Made by a program: the position numbers and the translations under genes
Assembly (NCBI GenBank): GCA_965140345.1
Contig: OZ223198.1
Location: forward strand, 327,809 to 391,808
Length of the DNA stretch: 64,000 nucleotides
Reading direction: 5' to 3'
From: Candidatus Kapaibacterium sp.
GTDB lineage: Bacteria > Bacteroidota > Ignavibacteria > Kapaibacteriales > UBA2268
Shown: positions 21,642 through 61,966 of the stretch, in pieces
Numbering within the stretch: the first letter of the stretch is position 1
How the letters are laid out: each line of letters opens with the position of its first letter
The notes under the pieces: generated by a model
The model's input: only the letters and a program-made list of their open reading frames with translations
The model's database searches: none
What the model was told of the DNA's origin: nothing

Positions 21642-22179
21642 ATATCAAATGAAACAAGAAACAATTAAACCTTGGGAAAGACAGCCAAAAGAGAGCATAA
21701 AAGCTTATGAAGCTTTTTGTAGATATAGAGATATGGGATATGGCAGAACACTAAAGAAGGTTGCGGTTGAACTTGGTAAATCGCAACAAAATATGAATAT
21801 GCTGTCTATGAAATGGGATTGGGTCAAAAGGACACAAGCCTGGATAGATGAATTAGAAAAAATAAAAGCTCAAGCTCAAAAGAAAGAAATAGAAGATATG
21901 GTAAAAAGACATTGCCAAGAATCTATGCTCTTTCAAAAGGTACTGACACTTCCTGCAGAGGCACTAATAAAAGAACTGAAGAAAGATCCTGAATCATTTA
22001 GTAAAATTCCTATACCGGCTTTATTTGAAAAAGCTCTTAAATCTGCAAATGTTCTTTCCAGTATCATTGACATAGAACGTAAGTCTCGAGGTGAACCTGA
22101 CTCGATCAGGCAAACAGATGTCACTTCGGGTGGTAAAGAGATTGTTGTAATTAAACCTGTATTCGAAGAAAAGAAATGA
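21625..22179 (+). CDS. terminase small subunit (putative)
   Basis: 184-aa ORF immediately upstream of TerL. HTH-like region (KAYEAFCRYRDMGYGRTLKKVAVELG) typical of small terminases. Confidence 0.5.
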   Translation: MKKLNKYQMKQETIKPWERQPKESIKAYEAFCRYRDMGYGRTLKKVAVELGKSQQNMNMLSMKWDWVKRTQAWIDELEKIKAQAQKKEIEDMVKRHCQESMLFQKVLTLPAEALIKELKKDPESFSKIPIPALFEKALKSANVLSSIIDIERKSRGEPDSIRQTDVTSGGKEIVVIKPVFEEKK

Positions 22180-23489: not shown

Positions 23490-24959
23490 ATGAAAGATAG
23501 TCTTAAAGCAATTGCAACTAGAAACAAAGTGTATTTTCAAGCACTTTTTGATGCATTGCCAAATCCCAATAAACTATTAGTTTCCGGAGGAGGAAGAATT
23601 GCCACTGTTGAAGATATCAAACTAGATCCTCATGTATCTAGTTATATACAGTCACGTACTTCGGGTGTAACATCCCAATTATGGGAAGTTCAAAGTACTG
23701 ATGATGACAAGCAAATTTTAGAATTAGTCCAAATGGTATTTGATAATTTGCCTATAAGAAAAATTATTGAAGATATTGTCAATGCACCATTATATGGATA
23801 CCAACCTCTGGAAGTTATGTATGTCGAGCAGGAAGTCAACGGTAAACTTCTAATTTTACCTACAGATGTAGTTGCAAAACCATTTAGCTGGTTTCTTTTT
23901 GATAAAGATAATATTCTCAAGCTTAGGACTCTAGAGAATCAAGAAGGAGAAGACTTACCTCCGATGAAGTTCCTGTGTCCTCAAAACAAAGCTAGTTATA
24001 ATAATCCGTATGGAGAATCAGTTCTTTCAAAATGTTTATGGAGTATCATCTTTAAGAAAGGTGGACTAACCTTTTGGGTTAAATTTACTGAAAAGTTTGG
24101 GATGCCTCATTTTGTTGGTAAGACTGATAAACTAGCTGATAGTGATGATTTTGATGAGTTTGTTGATATGTTAGATGAACTTGTTCAAGATGGCTCTGCT
24201 GTAATTTCTACAGAGGATGAGATTGAAGTACTAAGTGGTGCATCATCAATTTCGGTAAATGTATACAAAGAATTGTTGTCTTTCTGTAATGCAGAAATTT
24301 CAAAAGCAATATTGTCTCAAACACTAACCACTGATATAGGGAATACCGGTAGCTACGCAGCTGCTCAAACTCACGATGCGGTTCGTATGGAAGTAGTTGA
24401 TGCTGACAAGAGTTTGGTTCAAGATACATTTAACTTGCTCATCCGCTGGATAGTTGATATAAACTTTGGCAAAAATATTAAAGCTCCAAAGTTTGTTATT
24501 TACCAGGAAGAAGATGTTGATGCACCTCTTGCGGATGTGGTTCAAAAACTAGCATCTACAAATCAAATTCAATTTACGGAGCAGTTCTTTACTTCCAGGT
24601 TCGGATTTAAAAAAGAAGAGTTCAGAATTGTTAATCCTAAAACTGAGACTAGCAAAACTAATCAACCTGAATACTCTGCTTTTAATGAGAATAATAGTAA
24701 ATTGATTGATCAGATGGTTATTGATAACTTTGTCGACCAGTCTGCAAAAATGAGTAGAAGTACTCTAAATCAGACGACACAATATGTCGTGGATTACCTA
24801 AAAAAGAAGAGTTCACTTAAATCTGCTCTTTCCGGTATAAATAAATTACTTCCAAAAATGGATAGTGAAGATATCGAAACCAAGCTCATCAACATGATGT
24901 TTATGGCTGATGTGATAGGTAGACTTTCAGTTAAAGAGGAGCTTGAGAATGCCAAATAA
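23490..24959 (+). CDS. portal protein (DUF935 / Mu gp29-like)
   Basis: 489 aa, directly after TerL and before the Mu F-like gene. Confidence 0.6.
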   Translation: MKDSLKAIATRNKVYFQALFDALPNPNKLLVSGGGRIATVEDIKLDPHVSSYIQSRTSGVTSQLWEVQSTDDDKQILELVQMVFDNLPIRKIIEDIVNAPLYGYQPLEVMYVEQEVNGKLLILPTDVVAKPFSWFLFDKDNILKLRTLENQEGEDLPPMKFLCPQNKASYNNPYGESVLSKCLWSIIFKKGGLTFWVKFTEKFGMPHFVGKTDKLADSDDFDEFVDMLDELVQDGSAVISTEDEIEVLSGASSISVNVYKELLSFCNAEISKAILSQTLTTDIGNTGSYAAAQTHDAVRMEVVDADKSLVQDTFNLLIRWIVDINFGKNIKAPKFVIYQEEDVDAPLADVVQKLASTNQIQFTEQFFTSRFGFKKEEFRIVNPKTETSKTNQPEYSAFNENNSKLIDQMVIDNFVDQSAKMSRSTLNQTTQYVVDYLKKKSSLKSALSGINKLLPKMDSEDIETKLINMMFMADVIGRLSVKEELENAK

Positions 24960-28383: not shown

Positions 28384-29361
28384 CTATGATAGCTCTTCTC
28401 GTCTTCTAAGGAAGTAACTTATAAGCTCGTCTGGCAAGAAATTTTTCAAAGTTTGTTCGTTTTCTGTTCTAAAATATTCGTGTTTAGAATATTCTATCAA
28501 GCGAGCCAAGAAAATAATCCAATTAGAAATTTTTTCAAAACTGGTTGTTCCTGCGTGTTGCCTAAATTCCACAGAACCATGTCTCCAAAAAGCTCGGCTA
28601 TTTAATTTGTAATATCTATTTCTATGTGTAATTGAATTTTCTAGTCTTTCTAATCCGTCTTGCATCGAAGCTGTGTGGCCAACCGCATCTATCAATTCTT
28701 CAAAATTTGTTACTCTCATTGATTTACAATACCTATTGCTGGAGCCTCTTCTACTTTGTGGCATAAAAGAATCTATTAAATATTCAAGCTTAGCATAATT
28801 TTTGTACAAGTTTTTCCAAGTCTCAAGTTGAAAGTCAGAAGCATCAAAATGAATATGTAAGCCACAAGAGCGGTTTATCTTTGCACCTAAGCCTCGCAAA
28901 ATCAAGGTTACCGTTTTAAGTTGTCTCAAACCTGCCTCTCCAGTAAGTTTAGGACTAACCAATTCAAAAGTATTTGTTCCATTAAGTGAACCGTCTGTTG
29001 TGACTTTCCAATGATTTCTGGTTCGGTGATTATATCTTTCATGTTCCGTTGTGATACCTGCTGCAGTTAATTCAGTAACAAGTTCGTCTCTTGTTATTCC
29101 GAAGGCTTCAATCTCAACCCCAAAAGTGTGATTGAAAGTAAAATGTGTTAGGTTATAAGTTGCTTCTTCAACTACCTCTCTTAAGTTCCTTCTTCTTGAC
29201 CTCACCCTATCAGGATAAGATCGAGCAAAAACATTTTGTACGAAACCATAGCTACATCCCAATGCAACAGTTACTTCAGTTCTTGTTAATCCTAACTCTA
29301 GAAGTTGTTTTATTTTCCAAGTTTTGTTTTGATTTGCGTTTAAAATCTCTTGCCTTGTCAT
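28384..29361 (-). CDS. HTH domain fused to amidoligase (Amidoligase_2 / GCS2-like carboxylate-amine ligase)
   Basis: N-terminal HTH (KIKQLLELGLTRTEVTVALGCSYGFVQNVF). Ligase motifs FGVEIEAFG (G.E.E), ELVSP, GLHIHFD (H.H) and GSVEFRQHAGT (E.R) in the order seen in Amidoligase_2 / GCS2 enzymes. Confidence 0.55.
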   Translation of the reverse strand: MTRQEILNANQNKTWKIKQLLELGLTRTEVTVALGCSYGFVQNVFARSYPDRVRSRRRNLREVVEEATYNLTHFTFNHTFGVEIEAFGITRDELVTELTAAGITTEHERYNHRTRNHWKVTTDGSLNGTNTFELVSPKLTGEAGLRQLKTVTLILRGLGAKINRSCGLHIHFDASDFQLETWKNLYKNYAKLEYLIDSFMPQSRRGSSNRYCKSMRVTNFEELIDAVGHTASMQDGLERLENSITHRNRYYKLNSRAFWRHGSVEFRQHAGTTSFEKISNWIIFLARLIEYSKHEYFRTENEQTLKNFLPDELISYFLRRREELS

Positions 29362-30733: not shown

Positions 30734-31021
30734 TCAATTGATGTATAATAATCTGGATTCAAAAAGCTGCGTATAATCAGCGAAATTATCTACCCAAAAT
30801 GCTACGCCATTAGCTTCATTTATCTTATCGATATTATATTTTTGTAGTGTAGTTGGTACCTTTCCCGGAGCTTTTACTTCTATTGCAAAGTACTTACCTT
30901 TAAAACAACCGTCAATATCCGGGATGCCACTCCTATTGCTGAGAACATTCTTCTTAACATAAGCACCTCTCTTTTTGAGATCCTTTATTATTCTAGCTTG
31001 CAATTGAGATTCTTGAGCCAT
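30734..31021 (-). CDS. VRR-NUC domain nuclease
   Basis: GIPDIDGCFKGKYFAIEVK carries the PD-(D/E)XK signature of VRR-NUC. Typical partner of phage SNF2 helicases. Confidence 0.7.
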   Translation of the reverse strand: MAQESQLQARIIKDLKKRGAYVKKNVLSNRSGIPDIDGCFKGKYFAIEVKAPGKVPTTLQKYNIDKINEANGVAFWVDNFADYTQLFESRLLYIN

Positions 31022-32249
31022 TTAAGTAGTCCCTTCTGAAGTAATACAATGTGTAACTTTTCTTTTTCTGAACAGCCTCTAGAACATTATCTTCAATTCC
31101 ATTCTTGGCAAATATCCAATGAACATAAACCGGTGCTTCTCTATCTTGAGTTTGAAGTCGAGCTCTTACCTGCCAGTATATTGTTGATGAAAAATCTATG
31201 TTATAGAGGACTAAATAATCCGCAGTTGATAGATTAGTTCCCATTGAACCGGATTGCATCTGGGAAATAAATACTTTATCCGAGGATTGATTGAATTCTT
31301 CAGGAGATTCAGTGTGATTTGTAAATATCTTTTTAAGAGTCATGCCTTCGGCAATGAATTTGTAAAAGATTGCAATTTTTTTCCCTTTGTATTTCTCTTG
31401 AATAAACTTTGCTTTTGAAGTGTCTAGTATCAAATATTCACCGGATTCGGACTTGACTGTCCCGGAAGAAAGCTGATGTAATTTGTTTTGAAGCTTAACA
31501 GGTGTATCGCATACAACCTCTTCATCCTGGCGTTTAAATTTGTAGTACTTGTTTTTAACCAGGTGATCCATTAGGAGATATATTTGTCTGTCCATTTCAA
31601 CATAAAAGACTTCTTCTTGCAAGTCTGCAGTTTTAAAACCGGCTTCTTTTTGCGTAAAGCTGATTAAATAAGGAGATATCACTTCAGAAATTTCCTCTTT
31701 TTTTGCAGCTGCGTAATCGTTAATAGAGTAGCCATTGATTATTCTTTCTTTGACATTCACGAACTCTTTTGCCCATTTATAAAAGTTTTTATGCTTGAAT
31801 GGAGAGTTGTCAGAAATCCAAAATTGGTGATATATTTGAGAATGTGTTTCAGGTGAAGGAGTTCCACTTAGTAAAACAAGTGGTTTATTTTTTACAATCT
31901 CTTTTAGTTGCTTTGTTCTCTTTGACGGTTTCGGGAACGCACTAATACTATGAGCTTCATCGACAATAATAAAATCGTATGATTCTAGATCTTCAAGCTT
32001 ATGTATGCTTTCAAAGTTAATGATTTTGATTTGATAGTCATGTCCTTCGTCATCATAGTCTGCCTGGATAGATTTGATTGCTTTTTTCTTGGTAACAAAA
32101 AGTACCTTCTTAGCTTTATACATGTTGGCAAGCTCTAGAGCTATTCTTGATTTACCAACACGCATTTCGATAGCAAGGTAAACAATCAATAGCTCATTTA
32201 GTATTTGGAAAGCTTGATTAGCAATATTTCTTTGGTAATCTCTTAGCAT
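30993..32249 (-). CDS. SNF2-family DEAD/DEAH helicase
   Basis: DEAH box (FIIVDEAHSI) and motif III LLSGTP. Directly upstream of VRR-NUC. Confidence 0.7.
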   Translation of the reverse strand: MLRDYQRNIANQAFQILNELLIVYLAIEMRVGKSRIALELANMYKAKKVLFVTKKKAIKSIQADYDDEGHDYQIKIINFESIHKLEDLESYDFIIVDEAHSISAFPKPSKRTKQLKEIVKNKPLVLLSGTPSPETHSQIYHQFWISDNSPFKHKNFYKWAKEFVNVKERIINGYSINDYAAAKKEEISEVISPYLISFTQKEAGFKTADLQEEVFYVEMDRQIYLLMDHLVKNKYYKFKRQDEEVVCDTPVKLQNKLHQLSSGTVKSESGEYLILDTSKAKFIQEKYKGKKIAIFYKFIAEGMTLKKIFTNHTESPEEFNQSSDKVFISQMQSGSMGTNLSTADYLVLYNIDFSSTIYWQVRARLQTQDREAPVYVHWIFAKNGIEDNVLEAVQKKKSYTLYYFRRDYLNGSRISIAS

Positions 32250-33268: not shown

Positions 33269-35602
33269 TCAAAATGCTGATTGTTGGTCTGCATGTCTTA
33301 CTCCTATACCAATAAAATGTTTCTTTTTTCCGTTACGTATTTCACTCTTTATGAAATCTTTTTCCTCAATACAAGCATAGAATTTTTTCTTGCCTAGAGG
33401 ATACTCTTTATTCTCATCGCAGAATTCTGCATATTTTTTATACAAATCAATTGCAACAACATATTTTGTAGATGCTATTTCGCAGCACTCATTCATAAAT
33501 TCGAGAACCTTGTCTTGTTCTTCCCGGTATTCCTGAGTAGCTTTAAGAACAGATTTGGGAGGTTTAAGACCATTTTTTTGATAATCCACCCATCCTTCTA
33601 TCACCCAGTTGAGGATACCACTCTTTTCTCGCTCGAAATCGGCCATTAATTCCTGTTGTGGGCGTCTTTCTGCCTCAGGTATGGTTACGGTGAAGGGAAT
33701 CATACAAATACGCCTCCAGATGCCTGCATCTGTCCCTTTGATGTTTGGTTTATGATTGCCATAAATCCAAAGAGTGTGCGTAGGTATAAATTCAAAGAAT
33801 TCCTTATGCAAGAATCTTCCTAGAATAGGGTCACCACCTGTAAGATCTTTTACTTTATTTTCGTTGAATGCCTTGTTCTCAGGAAGCTCTGCAGCAGTTA
33901 CCAAACGTGCAGCAGGAAGACGAGCTATGTCGTTCGGAATAGAATCATTTTGATTTACCATTAGCATTTCAGTAGGAGCTTTTTGGAAATAAGTTCCGAA
34001 TATCATTTTCAGGACATTGAAGAAAACAGATTTACCATTCTTACCCGTGCCGTAACAGAAGAAAAGTACTTCTTCAAGATGAGCTCCGCACATTGTAAGT
34101 CCTAGGGCTCTCTGGACAAACTTGATAAGTTCTATATCCTGGTTAAATATTGTTTCCATTGAGTCTTCAAAAGAATAACATTTTGCTTCAGGATCATAGA
34201 AAGCTTCACTTACTTTAGAGAGCATTCTAGTTGATTTGTGAGGTAGAAACTCATTAGTTTTTAGGTTGTAAGTACCATTTTGAGTGTTGAATAAATAGTT
34301 ATTCTGGTCAAAATCAGTTTGAAGGCAAGCGACATTACTTTCTTTAGAGGCTAAATCCAGTAATGCACTTATTGAGTTTCTGGACTCTGATTTAGAAGCA
34401 TGCTTAAAAAGATTTTGCTTCTTCTCTTCGCTATGAAGTCTGGTAAGTTCATCATACATATTCCGTACACAGCTTTTTGCATAAGCATAAACTTCACCTT
34501 TAAGAGCTGCATCCCAATATTTCCCATTCCAAATGTGCCATTTACCGGAAGTATGATTAAAGCGAAGGACATTTTTATACGCATCAACAAAACGTTCAGC
34601 ATTACCCATATCAGTATTCTGATATTCTTTTTCCTGAGTAAGCTTATTAATAAGAGAACCGTTATTCGTAACCTCGTACTTTGAGTAATGGCTGTCTGGG
34701 AAAAGTATGGATGTATCAAAACCATAGTTCTTAGCATGATAAACAACAGTACCTATCCCAAATTTTTCCCCACGGTTTTGTATTCGGTACTTCGTTCCTC
34801 TTTCAGTATCCGGACTCCATTCGTCTATAAGAGAAATAGCAGTAGCCTCATCAAAGTAATTTCCTACTGCGGAGACAATACCAAACCACTCGATGTATTC
34901 CATTTGCGCAGGGATATGAGAAAGCATTTCTGCAACTTGTTCTTTTGTTAGATTGCCATTTAAGCCACGCTGTTTATATTCTTTCTGTTCAGTTTCTCTT
35001 TTATCTTTTTCGATTTTGATAGCATCAACCATAGCTTGGCTGAGAGTATTATCTCCGTAAATATGATATTTACAATCTTTATTACCGTAAGAAATCCTTT
35101 CAATGTTTTTGCAAGAAGGATCAGCACCATATTTATCTATGAGACCGGCAGCGATATTGAAATATTCATTTGCATCAGTAACTCTGTTAGTAAAAGCGAA
35201 AACTATTCTCAAGCGATGATGATCTTCTGTGTGAGAAGGTGTTGTATAAATAAACAAAGCATTTTTACGAAGCCAGGAGTCGTTTATACAGTTTTCCCAG
35301 GATAGGTAACCGTTACTTTCAGTCTTCTTAGATTTATCGTACTTTTTTGTATCTTTGTTATAGTGAGAAACGGTATTATCAATGTCTATAGCTATTAGAT
35401 CAGCCCCCACGATATCACTCGTAGAGGGCTTTTTAACAGACGCTTTGGGTTTGAGAACACCGCCGGTGAAGGCGATCCCTTGAGATACGTGATTGAGAAT
35501 AGACTGAGCGTCCAACTTAACCTTTACCCATCCCGGACTTCTTGGGTCACCTTTACCGATAATATTTTTATTTATACTAAGTTCGAATTCTAAATTCTTC
35601 AT
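33269..35602 (-). CDS. DNA primase-helicase (PrimPol/D5_N + P4-type C-terminal helicase)
   Basis: 777 aa. Walker A CYGTGKNGKS in the C-terminal NTPase typical of the phage/plasmid primase P4 family. Confidence 0.8.
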   Translation of the reverse strand: MKNLEFELSINKNIIGKGDPRSPGWVKVKLDAQSILNHVSQGIAFTGGVLKPKASVKKPSTSDIVGADLIAIDIDNTVSHYNKDTKKYDKSKKTESNGYLSWENCINDSWLRKNALFIYTTPSHTEDHHRLRIVFAFTNRVTDANEYFNIAAGLIDKYGADPSCKNIERISYGNKDCKYHIYGDNTLSQAMVDAIKIEKDKRETEQKEYKQRGLNGNLTKEQVAEMLSHIPAQMEYIEWFGIVSAVGNYFDEATAISLIDEWSPDTERGTKYRIQNRGEKFGIGTVVYHAKNYGFDTSILFPDSHYSKYEVTNNGSLINKLTQEKEYQNTDMGNAERFVDAYKNVLRFNHTSGKWHIWNGKYWDAALKGEVYAYAKSCVRNMYDELTRLHSEEKKQNLFKHASKSESRNSISALLDLASKESNVACLQTDFDQNNYLFNTQNGTYNLKTNEFLPHKSTRMLSKVSEAFYDPEAKCYSFEDSMETIFNQDIELIKFVQRALGLTMCGAHLEEVLFFCYGTGKNGKSVFFNVLKMIFGTYFQKAPTEMLMVNQNDSIPNDIARLPAARLVTAAELPENKAFNENKVKDLTGGDPILGRFLHKEFFEFIPTHTLWIYGNHKPNIKGTDAGIWRRICMIPFTVTIPEAERRPQQELMADFEREKSGILNWVIEGWVDYQKNGLKPPKSVLKATQEYREEQDKVLEFMNECCEIASTKYVVAIDLYKKYAEFCDENKEYPLGKKKFYACIEEKDFIKSEIRNGKKKHFIGIGVRHADQQSAF

Positions 35603-37868: not shown

Positions 37869-39032
37869 TTAGGCTCCTATGTTTTTAAAGAATTCTTTTT
37901 GTTCCATCTTATTAAGTATGTAATCTGCAGCAGGTTGTCTTTTAAGAAGATTATCCATTGCACCAGTACCATTGACCTTTCCTGACATGCGCATAAAGTC
38001 TTTAGGTTCTTCCCATTCGAGATTAAAAAGATTTAAAAGGTAAGGTATCTTTTTAGCTGCAGTAGAATCCGTTTGATCTTTCAAACTGTATGTTGGTGCA
38101 GAATGCCAGTCCTTTGGAGCAACATTGAATACCTTTTCTGCTTCAATGCCGAGAGATTCTTGTATCATTTGCTTATACATGTGAAGTTGAATCTCATGAG
38201 TTTCGAAGAATCCTGATTTACCGGATTTGAAATCGACAATCGCAGTAGTTCGTCTGATTTGCTTTGTTTCCTTTGGCTGGCCTTTCTTTTCTCCGGATTT
38301 GTAGACTTCTCCAAAGAATCCCTTCTCTTCGATATCCATTTCGCAAATAAGATCAACCGCACCTGCATATTTGTGTTCATCTTTTTTATAGAAGCCAACA
38401 GCTTCGATTGAAATTGGATCTACATTGTAGTCCCAGATAAACTGGATAAGAGAAGCCAGGTCTTTTTTGATTTGCCATTCCCAGCCGGCAGTATCAAAGT
38501 CAAGTTTCTGCTCTTCTGTATAGAGCTCAATTCTTTTTTTGATAGTATCAAAATCAAAACTCCTTTCTTTCTTGGTGTTCCCACTTCTGAGGTAGTCAGA
38601 AATTAAAGTATGAAGGAGTGTTCCGTAAGAAGCTTTTTCTCTAAGCATTTTGTAGTAACCTTTCATTCCAAGATCTGCAATTAGCTTTTTGATGGAATAA
38701 GGAGTCGGCATTGTTTTATCAATGATAGTAGTGACACTAGGGTAAAAAGTAACAAGTCCTGATGCGTTAGTAAACTTCTCACCGCTTTCCATAGGTTTTT
38801 CAATTAGCTGAGGAATACCATCCACGGTGTAATAATAACGCATCCCTTTTTGATTGAAACGGTAAATTTTAGGGAAAGAGATTTTAGCTTCAAATGCCGG
38901 ATTAATATATTCCGGTGTCATAGATTGGATTTCGTCATCCGAATCATCTTTAAATACTTCAGCCGTTTGAGTAAGCATGTTTTGAATTAAAGCCTGAAGT
39001 TGGGCTTGAGTTTGGGCAAGTGATTTAGCCAT
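37869..39032 (-). CDS. PD-(D/E)XK family nuclease (RecB-like/DUF2800-like, tentative)
   Basis: AGAVDLICEMD ... IVDFKSGKS...ETHEIQL arranged like D...E.K nuclease motifs. 387 aa. Confidence 0.4.
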   Translation of the reverse strand: MAKSLAQTQAQLQALIQNMLTQTAEVFKDDSDDEIQSMTPEYINPAFEAKISFPKIYRFNQKGMRYYYTVDGIPQLIEKPMESGEKFTNASGLVTFYPSVTTIIDKTMPTPYSIKKLIADLGMKGYYKMLREKASYGTLLHTLISDYLRSGNTKKERSFDFDTIKKRIELYTEEQKLDFDTAGWEWQIKKDLASLIQFIWDYNVDPISIEAVGFYKKDEHKYAGAVDLICEMDIEEKGFFGEVYKSGEKKGQPKETKQIRRTTAIVDFKSGKSGFFETHEIQLHMYKQMIQESLGIEAEKVFNVAPKDWHSAPTYSLKDQTDSTAAKKIPYLLNLFNLEWEEPKDFMRMSGKVNGTGAMDNLLKRQPAADYILNKMEQKEFFKNIGA

Positions 39033-41384: not shown

Positions 41385-41828
41385 ATGCAATATAAAATAT
41401 TGTTTTATACAATGCAAATTATTTTTACAAATATTCAAAAATATTTTATGACACAGTTCGAAAGATTAGAAAAAGTGGCTAAGTTGCATTTTGGCTCATT
41501 AGCTGGTGTGGCTAGATTGTTAGATAAAAAACCTCAATCATTTTATTCTTATAAAAGCAGAGATAAATTTGGTGAATTACTAATTCTACAATTGGCTGAG
41601 ATTGGTATAAACCCCAAATATATCACTGATGGCGAAGAACCGATGCTTCTCGAAAGCAATAAATCTCCAAAGAAGAAACCCGAACCGAATGTAGCATCAG
41701 TAGACTATGTAGAAATGATAGAGCTTCCTGACATAACAAAGATGAGCCCGGAACAGATGCGCAAATGGCGGGAAGCAGCTTTAAAAACGATTGATAAAAT
41801 AGATAAGATTTTGGAGGTTTTGGGGTGA
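41385..41828 (+). CDS. HTH transcriptional regulator (cI/Cro-like); likely start at ATG 41448
   Basis: LEKVAKLHFGSLAGVARLLDKKPQSFYSY is an XRE-type HTH. Divergent from the minus-strand regulatory genes. Its stop overlaps the next start. Confidence 0.5.
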   Translation: MQYKILFYTMQIIFTNIQKYFMTQFERLEKVAKLHFGSLAGVARLLDKKPQSFYSYKSRDKFGELLILQLAEIGINPKYITDGEEPMLLESNKSPKKKPEPNVASVDYVEMIELPDITKMSPEQMRKWREAALKTIDKIDKILEVLG

Positions 41829-42688
41829 GTAAAAAAACATTAGAATCAGATGGAATGAATTATGTTAGCATTGAGTTCGTTTGCCCAATATGCAATTATA
41901 AGAATATTGAGTCTTATATAAACATTCCAGCTGCTAAAACAATTGATGGGGGGACATCGCAAAATTTTACTGAAATGCTTTGTTCTAATTGCTTATCTTG
42001 TTACGGAATCAATATTATTTTATCTGAACATGGTGAAACTATTTTAGATATTGATCCTGATGTCGAAGGGCTCACAATTCTTGCTTATCACAGTGATATT
42101 ATCAATACATTTAGTAAAACCAATCAAACTTCAAGAATCTTTATCTATGAAGATTCTATAGAAAATCTGGAAAAGTTGAAAGAAATTGCTAATGTTACTT
42201 TGGAAGATGAATTAAATTTCGTGATTCTTCAGATGACTTTTGCACAATCCTTGACAACTCTTGAAAGTTATCTGTATAAGACTATCTCCTATAATATTAA
42301 CAGTCATGCTGTATTTCTTAAACGATTTGTTGCATCATATCAGTTCCCAAATAACAATCAACACAAGCTTAGCTTTAACAAAATATTTGAAGCGCAGAAA
42401 TGGATGCAGGGCATAATTGATGGCTTGCTTCAGAACCAGATATATCATAGACTTGATCAAGTCAACAAATTGTATGAGGCAGCTTTTGGCTTTAAACTTC
42501 CTGAGTATAGCAAAATTGACGACATCATCAAACTAAGACATGATATAGTCCATCGTAATGGAGAAACTAAAGACGGAGAAAAGATCAATATCACTCCGGA
42601 TGAACTCAAATCAGCAATAGACAGCATAGAAGAATTCATTAAGGCCACTGAAGTAAAGGTGCAGAAAGCTGTTAAAGATCTAGCATAA
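41825..42688 (+). CDS. zinc-ribbon protein with C-terminal HEPN-like R-x4-H motif (candidate toxin/abortive-infection effector)
   Basis: N-terminal CPICNYKN...CSNCLSC (4 Cys). C-terminal KLRHDIVHRNG fits an Rx4H motif. Translationally coupled to the HTH regulator. Confidence 0.4.
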   Translation: MSKKTLESDGMNYVSIEFVCPICNYKNIESYINIPAAKTIDGGTSQNFTEMLCSNCLSCYGINIILSEHGETILDIDPDVEGLTILAYHSDIINTFSKTNQTSRIFIYEDSIENLEKLKEIANVTLEDELNFVILQMTFAQSLTTLESYLYKTISYNINSHAVFLKRFVASYQFPNNNQHKLSFNKIFEAQKWMQGIIDGLLQNQIYHRLDQVNKLYEAAFGFKLPEYSKIDDIIKLRHDIVHRNGETKDGEKINITPDELKSAIDSIEEFIKATEVKVQKAVKDLA

Positions 42689-44183: not shown

Positions 44184-45125
44184 ATGCTTAGATATTTACT
44201 TTTTATAAAGATTCTATTTTTACTACTCTTTCTTCCCAATAGCTATTCTTCAGAGCTCATAGGAATTAATTCAAATACTGAATTCGGAATTCCAAAAGAT
44301 AAAGATTCTACGGATGATTTTATAATAGTAAGACCTCAATACACGCTGTCATACAATCATATTAAAGGAGTACCCAATTGGGTTTCCTATAATCTAGATA
44401 TGCATTGGATAGGCGATCAAGAAAGATATGATGGAAAATTCGTAAAGGATACAGTGCTACCTTTAGAGTGGCAAATCAGTCATGATGACTACACTAATTC
44501 TGGTTATGACCGTGGACATATGGTTATGAGTAAACAAAGGACTAAAAATGAAGAAGATAATTACTCAACATTCTACATGACCAATGTAATCCCTCAAACG
44601 CCAGATTTGAATAGAATCTTATGGCTTAGCCTAGAGAAATACTGCAATAAACTAGCTGTCGTTAATGATAAAGAACTTTACGTTATTACTGGAGGAATCT
44701 TCCATTCAGACACTACATTAAACAATGCCCGAAAAGTTGCAATTCCAGACAGTTGTTTCAAAATCATAATAGTTATGAATAAAGACGAAGGTTTAGATCA
44801 GATAAATGAAACAACAGAAACAATATCAGTAGTAATGCCGAATGCTTTTGAAATCAATGATAAAAATTGGAAGAATTACTCGACAAGTATCGATGCCATA
44901 GAATATTCCACAGGTTATGATTTTTTATCTAATATTCCTGATGAATTAGAAAACAAGATAGAATCAAAAGTTACTTATCAAAAAGAGATTCCGATTGAAA
45001 AGAAATCAGAAGTGAAGAAGGAAGTTCCATCGAAAACTGTAAGATGTAAAGGAAGAACAAAATCAGGAAGACAATGTAAAAGAATGACTAAAGATCCCAG
45101 TGGCTATTGTTGGCAGCATAAATAA
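44184..45125 (+). CDS. secreted DNA/RNA non-specific endonuclease (DRGH family) with C-terminal Cys/His tail
   Basis: Signal peptide. Catalytic SGYDRGHMV and flanking conserved blocks (NWVSYNL, NVIPQTP). Ends in RCKGRTKSGRQCKRMTKDPSGYCWQHK. Its start overlaps the channel stop (TAATG). Confidence 0.8.
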   Translation: MLRYLLFIKILFLLLFLPNSYSSELIGINSNTEFGIPKDKDSTDDFIIVRPQYTLSYNHIKGVPNWVSYNLDMHWIGDQERYDGKFVKDTVLPLEWQISHDDYTNSGYDRGHMVMSKQRTKNEEDNYSTFYMTNVIPQTPDLNRILWLSLEKYCNKLAVVNDKELYVITGGIFHSDTTLNNARKVAIPDSCFKIIIVMNKDEGLDQINETTETISVVMPNAFEINDKNWKNYSTSIDAIEYSTGYDFLSNIPDELENKIESKVTYQKEIPIEKKSEVKKEVPSKTVRCKGRTKSGRQCKRMTKDPSGYCWQHK

Positions 45126-47745: not shown

Positions 47746-48795
47746 ATGAAACAGACTTTGTATATTTTCATTTTATTAATATTTATTGGAATTGCCAGCG
47801 CTCAAGACCATAATTACGATTGGGTAAAAAGCGTGCATACAAGCTTAGGCGTGCCGGTGGATTCGGATACAACAGATGACTATATCATTGTTAGACCTCA
47901 ATACGTTGTATCATATAACCATACGAAAGGAGTTCCCAATTGGGTAGCTTGGGAGTTAAACTCGAGCTGGTATGGAGATGTAGAGAGACATACAGGAAAT
48001 TTTATTACAGATAAATCTTTGCCTGAAAATTGGCAAATAAAGCATAGCGATTATACCAATTCAGGATATGATCGGGGGCATATGGTGCGTTCTGAAGAAA
48101 GAACTGCAACAGAAGAAGACAATATATCAACATTCCTTTTAACAAATATTATTCCTCAAAGACCTAACCTTAACAGAAAAGTATGGTTGAAGTTCGAATA
48201 TTATTGCGAAGACCTTTGCAAAGAACAAAACAAAGAGTTATTTGTCTATTCTGGAGGTATTTATTTCGCAGATAGTACTTTGAAATCTGAAGGGAAAGTT
48301 GCAGTACCTGAATCATGTTTTAAGATTGTAGTTGTTCTTGAAGCAGATCAAAGCATAAATGATATTACAAAAGACACAGAAGTAATTGCTGTATTAATGC
48401 CTAATGATGACGAAGTAGGCGCTAACTGGGAAGACTATCAGACTACGGTTGACCAAATTGAGAGTCTAACTGGGTATGATTTTATGAGTTCAGTCTCAGA
48501 TGATGTTGAGAATGCTTTAGAAAGTGCTTCTACTTATATTGAAGAAACAGAGATCACAGATTTACTTAAAGTTTTTCCTAATCCAGTTCAAGATATAGCT
48601 ATTATTAATCTGCCTGTTGGGGAATACAAAAAAATTAAACTATGTGATTTAGCTGGACGCACTTACTCAATTTCTAATCTAATAATATCAGATGATTCAA
48701 TAAGCATTGACATTTCTAATCTTCCATCAGGGAAGTACTTTATAACATTTGATATCGGAAAAGAGGTGTACAGAGCTGAATTTTTGAAGGAATAA
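47746..48795 (+). CDS. secreted DNA/RNA non-specific endonuclease (DRGH family) with T9SS C-terminal sorting domain
   Basis: Paralogue of 44184..45125 (same SGYDRGHMV, NWVAWEL, NIIPQRP blocks). The C-terminus KVFPNPVQDIAIINLP...YRAEFLKE matches the Por/T9SS C-terminal-domain consensus. Confidence 0.8.
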   Translation: MKQTLYIFILLIFIGIASAQDHNYDWVKSVHTSLGVPVDSDTTDDYIIVRPQYVVSYNHTKGVPNWVAWELNSSWYGDVERHTGNFITDKSLPENWQIKHSDYTNSGYDRGHMVRSEERTATEEDNISTFLLTNIIPQRPNLNRKVWLKFEYYCEDLCKEQNKELFVYSGGIYFADSTLKSEGKVAVPESCFKIVVVLEADQSINDITKDTEVIAVLMPNDDEVGANWEDYQTTVDQIESLTGYDFMSSVSDDVENALESASTYIEETEITDLLKVFPNPVQDIAIINLPVGEYKKIKLCDLAGRTYSISNLIISDDSISIDISNLPSGKYFITFDIGKEVYRAEFLKE

Positions 48796-49100
48796 GAAAA
48801 AGTTTCATGTCCACTAAACAACCACAATTATAAAGTTTAAAACTATTGAAAATTCAAATACACAAAAAAAAGATAATAAAAATCAAAAGCAAACAAGGAA
48901 ACAGTTAAATGAGTAAAAAGACAAATTGACTAGTTCCTCTCATTAAATACCTGATGCAATTAACAACAAGTATTTTACCCTGAATACAACTCAATGGTCG
49001 AGTGATAAAGTGTTTTGGTATTTATATAGTTGAAAATATATTTAGCCTTCTTTAAAGCACAGAGTAGCGAATTTTAGAATAAGATATGAATGAAGAAAAT

Positions 49101-50078
49101 TTAAAACATCGATTCATTATACGAGCTATAACCGACTTTTGTCATAATCTCAGCTAATACATCAGAGTCAATTGGCCATTCAAGGCTTAAAGTGTAATTA
49201 GCTGAATTCAAAGAATAGAGGATATATAGTATTATTGGTTGCTTAGAGAGATAAGAGTTGTTTTCATAGAAATATTCATCTAACTCTTCAGAATTTTCTT
49301 TTACATATGACTCTATTTTATCAATATCTAGCGGAATCTTTTCTTCAAGCTTGAAGAAAAGATCTGTTAGTTCGATATCTAAGCTATCTTTATCATAACT
49401 TGGGAATCTAGTTTGATAAAGCTTTGTTAGCTGAAGTAATATATTATTGTATTTTCTGTTTTTATTGCTCATCATAGTTTTAATTGAACAAAAATAATCA
49501 TCAGTAGCTTCTAAAAGGGCTATAGATTTTGAAAGATTCCTCAATATTTCTGGATCATTTCTAAATGGACCTTTATAAGTAGTGTCATGACTTACTTCTG
49601 CAAGTGCATGTTGTAAAACAGTCCTTATCTGTATTTCACAAGTAATGAGATCCTTATTGCTTCTATCATCCTTTGGTTTTACAACGATATGCACAGATTG
49701 GTAATCAAAATTTTTAGGATTTACAAATGCCTCTTCTTGATAGTTTCTACTTACCTGTATGTCGATTTTATCGCATGATTTGAGACAATTTAACAAATTA
49801 ATAACTGAAACAGAATGTAGAAAAATGACTCTAACGCCAACTTTATCTTCAATATCCTTAATGGGATCCACATAATCTTTACGTCTGTATAAAGCCTTCT
49901 TTATGAATGAGTCGATATCCTTAATTCTTGGTTTAGATACAAGTTTTATATCAGCACTCAATTCAGAATCTGCCGAAATAATCTCACAAAGCACATTAGA
50001 AACATAGTTTCCCCATTTTTCTAATTCGTTCTTTATTGAGTCAAATTCACTGACTAACTGACTGATCTTGTCCTTCAT
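49101..50078 (-). CDS. RelA/SpoT-domain nucleotide pyrophosphokinase, synthetase-only (SAS/toxSAS-like) with a roughly 120-aa C-terminal extension
   Basis: Motifs in canonical order: KPRIKDIDSFIKKALYRR, IEDKVGVRVIFLH, DYQSVHIVV, CEIQIRTVLQHALAEVSHDTTYK. No HD hydrolase domain. Confidence 0.75.
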   Translation of the reverse strand: MKDKISQLVSEFDSIKNELEKWGNYVSNVLCEIISADSELSADIKLVSKPRIKDIDSFIKKALYRRKDYVDPIKDIEDKVGVRVIFLHSVSVINLLNCLKSCDKIDIQVSRNYQEEAFVNPKNFDYQSVHIVVKPKDDRSNKDLITCEIQIRTVLQHALAEVSHDTTYKGPFRNDPEILRNLSKSIALLEATDDYFCSIKTMMSNKNRKYNNILLQLTKLYQTRFPSYDKDSLDIELTDLFFKLEEKIPLDIDKIESYVKENSEELDEYFYENNSYLSKQPIILYILYSLNSANYTLSLEWPIDSDVLAEIMTKVGYSSYNESMF

Positions 50079-51133
50079 CCTCTTTTTGGCTTACCTTTAA
50101 TTTTTAAAACTGTATAATTTGGATTATCTATATCCAAAGTCTCTAATTCATCTTTTGTTGAAATGACGTTGACATTTAGATTGAAATTGTTATTAGGTCC
50201 TGAAATTACAACATTGTCGTTAAATTTCATACTGTCTTTTTCAATTTTCTTTTTGAGAAGTGTTGAATCCTTGGTAAAAGACAAAGGAAATTTTTTCAGT
50301 ATTTCCTCATGATATTGATCTAAGACTTCGATTTCGTCAGAGAAACACTTCTCTCCAAAAAGTTTGGGATTAAGTATATTTTGTTGATTATCTAGCATTT
50401 CTGCTTTTAATAAATTTGAGGCACTTGTTTTTTTTTCCCAACTACTTAACTGAGTATCAATGAAATTAGAAGTGCTATTATAAAACTCTTGAGATAATAA
50501 TTTTGAATTTTGAGAAGCATCAAAACCCAAGAAATCTTTATAGAAATAAGTAGCTGGAAAAGAATCTAGTCGAAATTGATCATCAAATAAATATGCACTA
50601 TATTCTGTTTCTATTTCTGTCTGCCTTTTTGATAATATACCAATTTTGTATAGCTTTTGGGATGGACTTAAGAATATGTCGCTTATCTTTTTAAGGTGCA
50701 ACTCTCCTTCCTTAGCTAAAGCGGTATGTAATTCAGCTTTAATAACAATGTATAATAATTGTAAACTCAATGGGTGCTTCGCTTCAATAATTATTAGATA
50801 ACCTCCAGGGATATTGCTTTTTGTTTGACTACTTGCTAATAACTCTGCAATATCTTTAGAAGATTCAATAAAATCATTATCTTCTAACTGTTCCAGTTTG
50901 TGACATATATCAAAAAAGCTCCCATCTTCTTTTTCCTCGATCTCTAGTTCAAAGGCTCTTGAATGCTTCCCAGCTGCATCAACTAGCCTTGTTTTAATTA
51001 AATCTTCAACATCATTCTCCATTAAAATTAAAGATTCAGAGGTGATTGTTTTTGCATGCTGTTCATTTGGTTCCTTCTTGAGTATCTCATGCATTATTGC
51101 TCTTGAAATTTTGATGTTTTTGTAATTGGTCAT
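50075..51133 (-). CDS. nucleoid-associated protein NdpA/YejK (NA37) family homologue
   Basis: N-terminal ISRAIMHEILKKEPN matches the YejK pattern INQIALHQLIKRDEQN. Further resemblances are GGYLIII (cf. GGFVLF), DFLGF (cf. DFLGA) and C-terminal TVLKIKGKPKRG (cf. TLTIKGTPPN). The comparison is against YejK recalled from memory. Confidence 0.55.
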   Translation of the reverse strand: MTNYKNIKISRAIMHEILKKEPNEQHAKTITSESLILMENDVEDLIKTRLVDAAGKHSRAFELEIEEKEDGSFFDICHKLEQLEDNDFIESSKDIAELLASSQTKSNIPGGYLIIIEAKHPLSLQLLYIVIKAELHTALAKEGELHLKKISDIFLSPSQKLYKIGILSKRQTEIETEYSAYLFDDQFRLDSFPATYFYKDFLGFDASQNSKLLSQEFYNSTSNFIDTQLSSWEKKTSASNLLKAEMLDNQQNILNPKLFGEKCFSDEIEVLDQYHEEILKKFPLSFTKDSTLLKKKIEKDSMKFNDNVVISGPNNNFNLNVNVISTKDELETLDIDNPNYTVLKIKGKPKRG

Positions 51134-51549
51134 AATATTTTACCCCATAAAAAATCAGTCATATATATTTTTCAAAATAACAAGCTAGATTAATATTGCT
51201 ATTTTCGACAATAAAGTATTGTTATAAATGACAAACAATAGTTAAAATGTATAGTACTAATATAAATATAGTATTATAATATTAATTTAATACAAGTATT
51301 TAAAAATATTTTATAGACATTAAAAACAACACATCCCTGAACTTACAATAGGCATATCTTTAGAGTATATTTAAAATTTATACTTAAAATAATCAAATTG
51401 CTATAAAATTACTAGTTGTTTAATTACATAACTTGTGCTATCATAAAGTATAATTAATATAAAATATGCAATACTTGTCATAATTGACAAATAATTATTG
51501 CATAAAAATACAAATGTTATTTAATACACGGTCTTAAAAGGGGTATACT

Positions 51550-52798: not shown

Positions 52799-53236
52799 AT
52801 GGCTAGAGGACAATACTCTCCCAATTTATCAGATGTGTTCGAAACGACAGAGCTAGAATTAAACAAATTCCTTACTTCCTATACTGCCGGACCAGGTATT
52901 AATGATATGGATGGTATGGAAAAAGTAACAGTTCCATTAATTGAAGGAATTAGAAAAGACAGAACTTATGTTCTCAAAGTTAATGGTGACTCAATGTCTC
53001 CGAAAATACAGGATAATGATACTCTACTTATTGATATAAACCCTTGCAAATATCAAACTGGTGACATTGTAGCAGTTTGTTTGAATGGAGATTATATGGT
53101 AAAAGTATATGATCCTGGATCTTACTGTTTATATCTTACTTCTATTAATCCAGAGTATGAACCTATAAGGGTATACGAAGAAGAGGACTCTTTGCAAATT
53201 CTAGGTAAAGTTATCAAAATTATTAGGGATGTATAA
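52799..53236 (+). CDS. standalone S24 (LexA/UmuD-type) peptidase domain protein
   Basis: VNGDSMSP (Ser nucleophile) and MVKVY (Lys) dyad with S24 spacing. 145 aa. No N-terminal HTH. Confidence 0.65.
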   Translation: MARGQYSPNLSDVFETTELELNKFLTSYTAGPGINDMDGMEKVTVPLIEGIRKDRTYVLKVNGDSMSPKIQDNDTLLIDINPCKYQTGDIVAVCLNGDYMVKVYDPGSYCLYLTSINPEYEPIRVYEEEDSLQILGKVIKIIRDV

Positions 53237-53490
53237 TACATCCCTTTTTATTATCAATATTGCCTTAGAAAGAAACATTTGTATTTTATGACAAACTTTC
53301 AAATACAGTTAAATATGAACTCACCCTAACAAAATCAATCTATTTCTTGTTTTTATTAAATAAAAGGCTACTTTTTTCAAAAAAAAATTAGTAACATTGT
53401 TATTAAATATCCTAATTTCAGAGAATATTGTTATTTGTGACAATATTTTCTTGCCATTTAGTGCAAAAAAGCATGTGATTATAATAAAAG

Positions 53491-54132
53491 ATGGAATATA
53501 AAATGAAAGAGACGGCAACAGAAAGACTAGATTTATTTATAAAAGTATTACTGAGAGATTATACTAAAACAAAAATTGCTGAAATGATAGGCATAGATTT
53601 GCCTATGCTGTCAAGATTTACAAAAGGTAACAAAGTTCCCGGAGCAGATAATCTTAAAAAAATTACCCAGCTTGGTGTGTCGATTAATTGGTTGTTGAAT
53701 GGAAAAGGTGCTGTTTTGAGTAACGATGAATATGGAGTAAGAGCAAGAAATATATTTATAGATGATTTGCGTAATACAAAAGCGTCACTTGGAAAGAAAG
53801 AAATATCTCATAGCAAAATTATAGAAACCATCAATAAACATTATGGTAGCGAAGAAAAATTTTGCAAATATTTAGATGATAATAATATAAAGTACAACAA
53901 AGAGCATTTGGAAGAATTCTTTCTAGGAGACCAATCAATTCGTTTAGGTATAGAAGAAATATTTTATAAAACTAATATTTACCTCTACATTAATTACGAA
54001 GATCAAGAATTACTATCTGGGATTAAATACGTAATTGAAAATATTCAGCAATATCAAGAATGTTATTTAAAGACTAATAGTAGAGCTGATGAGATATTGA
54101 AAAAGATTAAAGACATTATTAGTGAGTATTAG
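53491..54132 (+). CDS. XRE-type HTH protein with unknown C-terminal domain
   Basis: KIAEMIGIDLPMLSRFTKGNK...LGVSINWLLNG is an HTH_3-like motif. Its stop is 3 nt before the next start. Confidence 0.55.
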   Translation: MEYKMKETATERLDLFIKVLLRDYTKTKIAEMIGIDLPMLSRFTKGNKVPGADNLKKITQLGVSINWLLNGKGAVLSNDEYGVRARNIFIDDLRNTKASLGKKEISHSKIIETINKHYGSEEKFCKYLDDNNIKYNKEHLEEFFLGDQSIRLGIEEIFYKTNIYLYINYEDQELLSGIKYVIENIQQYQECYLKTNSRADEILKKIKDIISEY

Positions 54133-60742: not shown

Positions 60743-61966
60743 CTAATCCCAAGCCTTAAAAGCTTCTTTTACATCACTCTCAGCAATTTTAACATATTTT
60801 TGAAAAGATTGTCTCGATTTATGACCGGTAACTTTCATCACCGTTTCGGGAAGTATACCTAACTTCAAACTCAAAGTGATGAATGTTCGCCTAGCAGTAT
60901 GAGACGAAACTAGTTCATACTTTGGAATAATCTCTTCCTTTTTTGCACCGGCAATATACTTAGTTATTTTTATATCCTCACTTATACCTGCCAGTTGACA
61001 AAGTTTCTTGATATTTAGATGATATCTGGCTTTTGATCTGAATTGTATTGACTCAATAGGATGTTTCAAAAATATCTTGAAGAGTTTGCTAACTATTGGA
61101 ATAGTTACTTCTTCAGATGTTTTTTGAGTAGTCAATCTTATTTCTCTATTCTCCATATCTACATTCATTGGGCTAAGCTTCATAATATCTGATTGTCTTA
61201 AACCTGTATAGCATTGAATTAAAAAATAATACTTGCTCCAAAGCAATTTTTCAGTTTTTCCGGATAGTTCAAGCTCTTCTAATTTTTCTAATTCTTGGGT
61301 AGTCAATACTATCTTCGATGCAACTTTGTTTTCAAAAGAGAAGAATTTGTAATCCATGGATGTATTAATCTTTTCAATATAAGCGTAACTACAAATAGTC
61401 TTTATAAACTTAATATGTGAATGTATATATCCTGTGCTTAGATTTAGAGTATTTAAATATCTAATTAGAGACAAGAAAAATGGCTCATTGATATCATTGA
61501 ACAAAATTTGAATTTGTTGATCCTTCTCGAATCCTACAAGATTTTGATAAAGTTGATTATAAGTTTTAAGTGTATTGGAATTAAACCGATTGCCTCTTTG
61601 AGTCAATGCCTCTCCAGTTGCAAATCTTTTCAATAAATTTTCTGTATACTCTATAAAAGTAGTAAAATCACTCTGCTTTTTATTTAAAAAAGTCTTTAAT
61701 TGATGTCTTGACAGACTACCTATACCATGTTCCTCTTCCACCCTATTTACAAATCGCGTTATAGAACTAATCTTTTTATCTATCTGAGCATTCTTTTCAA
61801 AATGATTTTTTTCTCTCGTAGAAATCCTTTTGGTTCGTTTGCTAAAGTTTGCTGGATTAATACTAACACCAGAAGAAATCTGAATCCTAAACCCATTCAT
61901 CGCTATATTAAGCATTATAACCGCTTTGTTGTTTTTGACAGATAAATATGGAGATATTCTAACCAT
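60743..61966 (-). CDS. tyrosine site-specific integrase (Bacteroidetes phage/CTn type)
   Basis: C-terminal catalytic region with HTARRTF, GHKS and terminal Tyr-containing block. 407 aa. Last gene before host mla genes. Confidence 0.8.
   Translation of the reverse strand: MVRISPYLSVKNNKAVIMLNIAMNGFRIQISSGVSINPANFSKRTKRISTREKNHFEKNAQIDKKISSITRFVNRVEEEHGIGSLSRHQLKTFLNKKQSDFTTFIEYTENLLKRFATGEALTQRGNRFNSNTLKTYNQLYQNLVGFEKDQQIQILFNDINEPFFLSLIRYLNTLNLSTGYIHSHIKFIKTICSYAYIEKINTSMDYKFFSFENKVASKIVLTTQELEKLEELELSGKTEKLLWSKYYFLIQCYTGLRQSDIMKLSPMNVDMENREIRLTTQKTSEEVTIPIVSKLFKIFLKHPIESIQFRSKARYHLNIKKLCQLAGISEDIKITKYIAGAKKEEIIPKYELVSSHTARRTFITLSLKLGILPETVMKVTGHKSRQSFQKYVKIAESDVKEAFKAWD

Follow-up and report, generated by a model that had tools for sequence, protein, structure and literature searches.

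What is a nucleoid-associated protein (NAP) doing in an operon with an alarmone synthetase? The question is raised by a 64,000-nucleotide stretch of Candidatus Kapaibacterium sp. DNA (GCA_965140345.1, contig OZ223198.1, positions 327,809 to 391,808 of the forward strand; hereafter the window). Here two open reading frames (ORFs) on the minus strand encode a NA37-like protein of 352 aa (50075-51133), and then a RelA/SpoT-like synthetase of 325 aa (49101-50078). A first-pass annotation of this DNA had proposed a toxin-antitoxin (TA) or anti-phage module and regarded the pairing as one not yet described. The latter statement is outdated, as a preprint of 6 April 2026 has named the pairing of NA37 and RelA/SpoT proteins Type I PANGU (bioRxiv 10.64898/2026.04.06.716658). 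We estimate a probability of about two in three that the operon is a Type I PANGU-like abortive-infection module. The class and its mechanism are thus already described, and the window locus is a divergent, intact member from the Bacteroidota.

In the published system, Pag1A is a YejK-like NAP and Pag1B a small alarmone synthetase (SAS) of the GRel subfamily, in which a helical linker joins an N-terminal synthetase to a C-terminal domain that is acidic and termed 'DNA-mimicking' (bioRxiv 10.64898/2026.04.06.716658). Protection of E. coli against T4 was shown for the systems of F. futtsuensis and P. aeruginosa and depends on both genes and on the G-loop Tyr; related systems are protective against T4 and Bas34. 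Neither Pag1A nor Pag1B is toxic, singly or combined, and the isolated synthetase domain is inactive. On its own Pag1B is an inactive tetramer. Binding of a Pag1A dimer to its C-terminal domain, with a dissociation constant (KD) of 9.4 nM, produces an active 2:1 complex that converts ATP and GTP, GDP or GMP to AMP and (pp)pGpp, leaving tRNA unmodified. Pag1A binds long DNA non-specifically and departs from the nucleoid during T4 infection, T4 escape mutations map to endonuclease II, the initiator of host-DNA degradation, and a Pag1A deficient in DNA binding renders the pair toxic. The DNA-contact residues of Pag1A are K200/R203/K204 in the F. futtsuensis protein, and Pag1B binds Pag1A through the interface residues R258/R306/H314. 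Counted by position, the numbering of these interface residues carries over to none of the homologues retrieved here. Type I systems occur in more than five phyla. PANGU systems are sporadic in some phyla, Bacteroidota among them, and a SLATT gene is added to part of the operons (bioRxiv 10.64898/2026.04.06.716658). A full-text literature search returned no other paper connecting YejK-family proteins with alarmone synthetases. The 2011 classification of RelA/SpoT homologues listed gRel as gammaproteobacterial only and gave no small synthetase for Bacteroidetes (PMC3153485).

Both ORFs of the first-pass annotation were found exactly where it had placed them. Read directly, the junction is ggATGAagg, the ATG of the synthetase gene sharing 4 bp with the TGA of the NA37 gene upstream. 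This overlap implies translational coupling of the two genes. The preprint requires a NAP-synthetase spacing of <40 bp (bioRxiv 10.64898/2026.04.06.716658), and the window genes lie on the same strand with their 4-bp overlap. Public annotation of the NA37 gene (P0121) gives a protein of 339 aa that begins at Met14. The first 13 codons (51095-51133) are conserved among homologues, however, with R11 present in 97%, and the first beta-strand is predicted confidently at residues 8-18 by AlphaFold 2 (AF2). Given this alignment and this strand, the 352-aa start is more likely to be correct than the annotated one. The predicted masses of 37.9 kDa for the synthetase and 40.4 kDa for the NA37 protein compare with 37.5 and 40.6 kDa published for P. 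aeruginosa Pag1B and Pag1A (bioRxiv 10.64898/2026.04.06.716658).

Profile searches bore out the family assignments of both proteins. The NA37 protein matched Pfam NA37 (PF04245) with an E-value of 5.5e-13 and 49 bits (cut-off 24.6), over profile positions 1-309 of 325. Its AF2 model, with a predicted local distance difference test score (pLDDT) of 89.6, had a single significant fold match in the PDB using Foldseek, which was E. coli YejK over its full length (9be2, E 1.6e-8). At the sequence level its family and YejK are only distantly related (profile E 1.3e-3, 15% identity). A further PDB match, 'Tako8', is a designed repeat protein aligned in eight sub-threshold stretches and was rejected as an artefact. 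At 352 aa, with this PF04245 score and a YejK fold, the protein falls within the preprint's definition of the NAP component (NdpA/NA37, at least 300 aa, E <1e-10; bioRxiv 10.64898/2026.04.06.716658). The basic residues R11, K20, R49, K132, K160, K163 and K288 are kept in 97-100% of NA37 partners across clades. Proteobacterial partners also have two Lys/Arg in the loop before the YFY-DFLG motif (K200 and K204 in Yersinia), at positions that agree with the numbering in the preprint, and this loop is probably the equivalent of the DNA-contact residues K200/R203/K204 reported there. The window protein and its clade have K198 after the YFY motif.

The synthetase matched Pfam RelA_SpoT (PF04607) over residues 51-169 (E 2e-18, 67 bits, cut-off 27). 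All synthetase motifs quoted in the first-pass annotation are present in the translation, no Pfam match to a hydrolase (HD) domain was found in the 325-aa protein, and ~150 residues extend beyond the synthetase domain. NCBIfam gave only a sub-threshold match, to YjbM-type GTP diphosphokinase. An AF2 model built on 143 homologues (mean pLDDT 93, predicted template modelling score 0.82) divides the protein into three parts, namely an alpha/beta domain at ~1-175, linker helices at 176-204 and 206-222, and a helical C-terminal domain at 235-314. R51, K53, K61, D78, R83, Y126, E148 and Q150 are present here and are among the residues invariant in the 143 homologues. Of these, Y126 aligns with the G-loop tyrosine (GY(R/Q)S-H) of RelP/RelQ, which makes it the equivalent of Y129, an essential residue of Pag1B. 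The enzyme thus combines a PF04607 domain and the catalytic Tyr with the lack of an HD domain, as expected of a Type I PANGU synthetase.

Comparison of folds placed the synthetase domain closest to RelQ/RelP, with template modelling (TM) scores of 0.75-0.79 and a profile E of ~1e-12. The first-pass annotation had likened the architecture to fused synthetases of the CapRel type, and this likeness proved weak. CapRel (7ZTB/9ERV) matched with a profile E of 9e-5, ~7 orders of magnitude weaker than RelP/RelQ, and with TM scores of 0.36-0.37 at a root-mean-square deviation (rmsd) of 12 Å, the alignment being limited to the synthetase domain. FaRel2 (8pu3) was also a weak fold match (E 2e-4). A search of viral folds in BFVD gave matches confined to the synthetase domain, one of which is a phage protein named Tas1. 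The PADLOC candidate PDC-S33 (E 5e-13) was rejected, as it aligned residues 42-160 with profile positions 62-175 of 349 and reflects the shared catalytic core.

With a net charge of -1 and an isoelectric point (pI) of 6.4, the synthetase domain is close to neutral, whilst the C-terminal domain (residues 223-325) contains 21 Asp and Glu against 8 Lys and Arg, giving a net charge of -13 and a pI of 4.08. We infer that it corresponds to the DNA-mimicking (DMK) domain that in the preprint binds the nucleoid protein. A linker followed by an acidic C-terminal domain is the published layout, the two domains being compared here by description. The C-terminal domain can be aligned with the gammaproteobacterial homologues as far as their ends, a conserved W301-P motif included. 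When 1.84 billion representative proteins were searched, the linker and C-terminal region turned up solely in proteins that share the size and architecture of this one, whole or as fragments, and no fusion of the C-terminal domain to other effectors was seen. Two long outliers in this search matched in several short pieces and seem to reflect low-complexity sequence. Across the alignment of 143 homologues, the net charge of the C-terminal domain averages -4.3 in the Bacteroidota clade (-13 to +4) and -1.3 in the proteobacterial clade (-6 to +4). No member of the family has a more acidic C-terminal domain than the window copy, at -13.

We surveyed gene neighbourhoods for co-occurrence of the two genes, a check that the first-pass annotation had itself put forward. 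A scan of reference genomes, taking one per species, found 42 loci, 30 of which had a full-length synthetase homologue and DNA upstream of it. A NA37 gene lay directly upstream on the same strand in all 30. The junctions of homologous loci span -11 to +9 bp and are typically -8, -4 or +1 to +9 bp. Weaker matches to the synthetase domain alone (L034-L044) had no NA37 gene. The reference loci come mostly from Bacteroidota, with others from Mariprofundus, Achromobacter and a metagenome-assembled genome (MAG) of the Acholeplasmataceae. A Rickettsiales MAG with a full-length synthetase homologue was left out of the count because its contig ends just upstream. NA37 also directly precedes the synthetase homologue in Dyadobacter and on a metagenomic prophage-like contig (L002). 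In IMG/VR, relatives of the synthetase are encoded on 79 viral contigs, and of the 79 viral or plasmid loci that could be evaluated (IMG/VR plus two plasmid loci), 75 had NA37 adjacent, bringing the pairing to 105 of 109 evaluable loci overall. No full-length copy was found by tblastn among the sequenced phages of INPHARED. The two proteins also co-vary, as their distances over 30 pairs correlated with r = 0.94 in a mirror-tree/Mantel analysis, and none of 2000 permutations gave a value as high.

The window copy is a singleton, no more than 44% identical to anything else. A profile of proteobacterial members recovered a large gammaproteobacterial family of 327-341 aa, and Gammaproteobacteria are the home taxon of gRel (PMC3153485). 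In BLASTP, the window synthetase aligned over its full length, C-terminal domain included, with homologues from Yersinia ruckeri (32% identity, E 4e-40) and Halomonas (32%, E 6e-45), both of which are likewise paired with NA37. The window NA37 protein is 28% identical to the Y. ruckeri partner over its full length (E 1e-33). The Y. ruckeri pair is located in a Tn7-like/colicin island, whilst that of Halomonas lies among ordinary metabolic genes. The pair is also present on a conjugative IncFIB Klebsiella plasmid and on a C. botulinum phage-plasmid, in the latter just after the lysis genes. This nearly obligatory pairing, common on viral contigs and plasmids, independently supports the view, put forward in the preprint, that the module is mobile and defensive.

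On the Klebsiella pneumoniae IncFIB plasmid (NZ_CP092398.1, L049 5430-7993) the locus comprises three genes, encoding in this order a DUF4231 protein, the NAP and the RelA/SpoT protein, and adjoins a DEAD/DEAH helicase gene and an IS110 element. We take DUF4231 to be a family of the SLATT clan, and on that assumption the locus is probably an instance of the Type I variant with a SLATT gene that the preprint mentions. Damaged copies were seen elsewhere. Frameshifts affect both members of the pair in a Chitinophagaceae MAG (L024 4846-6961), the pair is truncated in another MAG (L021 4791-6687), and an unannotated partial synthetase is present in Neisseria gonorrhoeae chromosomes (NZ_CP119142.1, 1051942-1052508).

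How might the window pair work? We have moderate confidence in transferring the mechanism of the preprint to it. The YejK-like, Pag1A-like protein would rest on chromosomal DNA as a dimer, and the Pag1B-like synthetase would be kept inactive, which in the published system is as a homotetramer. Degradation of the host chromosome by a phage would free the nucleoid protein, which would then swap DNA for the acidic C-terminal domain of the synthetase to form an active 2:1 complex. The complex would move pyrophosphate from ATP to GTP, GDP or GMP, flooding the cell with (p)ppGpp and depleting ATP and GTP. Transcription and translation would halt and propagation of the phage would fail. Sensing by DNA release, activation in place of neutralisation, the states of oligomerisation, pppGpp as the product and protection against phage would all be as the preprint reports for its own systems. 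The first-pass annotation had offered the NA37 protein as antitoxin or sensor. Its sensor half fits an anti-phage module of this kind, and its antitoxin half does not, as the protein is an activator in characterised homologues.

The coordinates of the operon and of the features around it are collected in the table below.

Features of the window (strand given where assigned; a point marks intergenic regions)
Feature	Position	Strand	Details
pag1A-like gene	50075..51133	-	352 aa, 40.4 kDa, YejK/NA37-family nucleoid-associated protein
pag1B-like gene, synthetase domain	49554..50078	-	residues 1-175; RelA/SpoT-type, without hydrolase domain
pag1B-like gene, long alpha-helical linker	49413..49553	-	residues 176-222; AF2 model
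pag1B-like gene, acidic all-helical C-terminal domain	49101..49412	-	residues 223-325 and stop; AF2 model, charge
ATGA start/stop overlap	50075..50078	-	sequence read directly
Divergent intergenic region upstream of operon	51134..51549	.	416 bp, 19.5% GC; presumed promoter region
Intergenic region downstream of operon	48796..49100	.	305 bp, convergent with secreted-nuclease gene
Transposase gene and adjoining tape-measure-like ORF	6072-8886		transposase phrog_2331, E 3e-147; ORF of 516 aa
Tail-fibre-like	12090-13199		
Head maturation protease	18892-20079		
ParB-methyltransferase	20268-21641		
Large terminase	22176-23480		
Portal	23490-24959		
Amidoligase	28384-29361		
Helicase	30993-32249		
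D5-type primase-helicase	33269-35602		
Exonuclease	37869-39032		
147-aa ORF and HEPN RiboL-PSP protein	41385-42688		HEPN protein 287 aa, E 1.9e-10; 4-bp overlap; ~6.4 kb from operon
Endonuclease_NS gene	44184-45125		secreted DNA/RNA non-specific endonuclease, E ~1e-50
Endonuclease_NS paralogue	47746-48795		E ~1e-50; with type IX secretion system (T9SS) C-terminal sorting domain
S24 peptidase and XRE-type helix-turn-helix (HTH) protein	52799-54132		145 aa and 213 aa; phage repressor families (phrog_4)
Tyrosine integrase	60743-61966		Arm-DNA-binding_5 domain; far end of low-GC stretch

Of the promoter region expected upstream of the operon, the length and AT-richness hold good, and a promoter signal does not stand out. 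A scan of 51134-51549 gave 24 sigma-70-like sites against 19.6 ± 5.1 in shuffles, which is no enrichment, and the same region has no perfect copy of the Bacteroidota-type TAnnTTTG (-7) motif. Downstream, no terminator was predicted on the operon strand in 48796-49100, and no third, SLATT-like gene was found in these 305 bp.

The wider setting is an accessory and mobile one, as the first-pass annotation had described it. From its first position to ~39.7 kb the window is prophage-like. The 516-aa ORF matches only positions ~150-600 of tape-measure profiles that are >1200 positions long, and because it adjoins a transposase gene, the tape-measure gene looks interrupted by an insertion sequence (IS); the prophage may be defective. 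GC content falls to about 0.31 from ~41 to 62 kb and climbs to 0.40 over the window's final kilobase. The pair sits in this low-GC stretch, between the prophage and the integrase gene, and the stretch also holds genes for a K+ channel, a tetratricopeptide repeat (TPR) protein and T9SS cargo. Both Endonuclease_NS genes are on one side of the operon, with two ORFs that have no family match between them. At the low-GC edge, the HEPN RiboL-PSP gene and its 147-aa neighbour may form a second two-gene conflict module, for which PADLOC gave no match. Neither att-like direct repeats bounding an island around the integrase, nor tRNA genes, nor Rfam matches were found in the window. The S24/HTH repressor-like pair lies ~1.7 kb upstream of the operon, and in the prophage-like locus L002 (3709-5057) Peptidase_S24 and HTH genes are likewise near the NA37-synthetase pair. 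The pair adjoins both a prophage and these repressor-like genes, as in L002, and a conceivable, if doubtful, role is that of a prophage-linked module that excludes superinfecting phages.

Several points weigh against assigning the operon to Type I PANGU. The functional evidence comes from the F. futtsuensis and P. aeruginosa systems only, Bacteroidota members being known as sequences, and the mechanism has a single source, a preprint without peer review (bioRxiv 10.64898/2026.04.06.716658). The window proteins were compared with the validated Pag1A and Pag1B through published description only, and by sequence with the Yersinia and Halomonas pairs, and their identity to proteobacterial pairs is only ~30%. 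In the Bacteroidota clade the NA37 loop before YFY-DFLG is 2 residues shorter and R188 is its only basic residue. Across the family, the 'DNA-mimicking' domain is not generally acidic overall. Among the ten ORFs neighbouring the operon, PADLOC identified no defence genes and gave weak HTH-type matches only. In the preprint, linkage to defence genes within 10 kb is an enrichment filter and not a defining trait (bioRxiv 10.64898/2026.04.06.716658).

The operon could alternatively be a classical type II TA system, with a constitutively toxic toxSAS neutralised by bound NA37 until degradation of this antitoxin frees its toxicity. Type II systems usually have such a layout, in which the partner gene lies upstream and overlaps by 4 bp, several SAS subfamilies are TA toxins (PMC7229694), and tight co-variation would fit any binding pair. 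The characterised homologues are however non-toxic, singly or combined, and NA37 is needed for activity and defence (bioRxiv 10.64898/2026.04.06.716658). In the window, the partner has a full YejK fold of 352 aa and is not a small labile antitoxin, and the synthetase is nearer to RelQ/RelP than to FaRel2. The TA half of the first-pass proposal is thus unlikely. It is similarly improbable that the same NAP-controlled switch uses another chemistry, making (pp)pApp and depleting ATP as FaRel and Tas1 do, or pyrophosphorylating tRNA 3' ends as CapRel and FaRel2 do. Both profile and fold are nearest to bona fide (p)ppGpp synthetases, the near-neutral synthetase domain is unlike the positively charged tRNA-binding pocket of CapRel, and the homologous Pag1B left tRNA unlabelled and used ATP and guanine nucleotides only (bioRxiv 10.64898/2026.04.06.716658). 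Set against this are the distance from the proteobacterial clade, the acceptor specificity of RelA/SpoT enzymes, which is not reliably readable from sequence, and the Tas1-named phage protein among the viral fold matches.

A housekeeping or stress role, in which the nucleoid protein tunes the synthetase and so links the state of the chromosome (DNA damage, starvation) to the stringent response, would suit the Halomonas pair among its metabolic genes and the lack of a recognised defence gene next to the window operon; the preprint found linkage to known defence genes for only ~8% of NAP operons (bioRxiv 10.64898/2026.04.06.716658). It fits poorly with a patchy distribution across phyla on prophage or viral contigs, plasmids and a Tn7-like/colicin island, with the frameshifted or truncated copies in some lineages (L024, L021, N. 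gonorrhoeae) and with the protection that related systems give against T4 and Bas34. The window copy is itself a singleton in a low-GC stretch between prophage and integrase genes, and we think such a role has little probability. Decay is a further consideration, given the degraded copies in L024 and L021 and the IS-interrupted prophage alongside. Full-length ORFs, all the invariant residues, confident folds and an intact ATGA junction nevertheless make it highly improbable that the window pair is a non-functional remnant carried with a mobile element. More closely related to the favoured reading is the idea that the Bacteroidota clade is a functionally distinct NAP-synthetase switch, with another DNA/effector balance, trigger or nucleotide product. 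This is possible but doubtful, and is raised because the NA37 loop is shorter and less basic and the C-terminal domain the most acidic of the family.

Taken together, we favour a Type I PANGU-like module. Since the class and mechanism are already described, the locus adds little conceptually. Its value is as a divergent Bacteroidota case for testing how general release-from-DNA sensing is outside the Proteobacteria, and for asking whether extreme C-terminal acidity and a shortened basic loop alter the switch. The first-pass annotation had, from sequence alone, picked out a recently discovered type of immune module, one in which a chromosome-coating protein reports destruction of DNA by phage to an alarmone synthetase.

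Amongst known systems, E. coli YejK (NdpA, 9be2) shares with the NA37 protein its full-length fold and Pfam family, but is a stand-alone, abundant chromosomal protein with a weak sequence relation to the window family. RelQ and RelP (YjbM/YwaC) of Firmicutes provide the closest solved catalytic domains and are (p)ppGpp-making homotetramers, and Pag1B is also reported to be a tetramer. They differ in being ~210-230 aa long, without linker, acidic domain or NA37 partner, and in being housekeeping rather than mobile. The toxSAS type II TA systems (FaRel/ATfaRel, FaRel2/ATfaRel2, PhRel, PhRel2; PMC7229694) resemble the operon in being bicistronic and in encoding a SAS homologue as the component that would arrest growth. 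Their toxins are single-domain proteins of ~200 aa, toxic alone and neutralised by a small antitoxin or hydrolase (PMC7229694), whereas the window synthetase is a three-part protein of 325 aa whose partner has a full YejK fold and is an activator in characterised relatives. CapRel(SJ46) (PDB 7ZTB) likewise combines a RelA/SpoT-fold synthetase with a C-terminal regulatory domain and acts in abortive phage defence. It is however a single gene, its own C-terminal domain being a cis antitoxin opened by a phage capsid protein, and it pyrophosphorylates tRNA; the window synthetase has a separate nucleoid-protein gene as its presumed regulator, and only the synthetase domains align.

From Type I PANGU, the window operon differs in its unusually acidic C-terminal domain (-13), in a shorter NA37 basic loop, which has a single basic residue against two or three, and in having neither a SLATT-like third gene nor a known defence neighbour. 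The likeness extends to the order of genes, a YejK/NA37 gene followed by one for a synthetase-only enzyme of ~325-340 aa, and to the linker, the acidic domain, the G-loop Tyr and the sizes of both proteins. In both, the pairing is strict and co-varying, is found on mobile elements and spans several phyla, Bacteroidota included.

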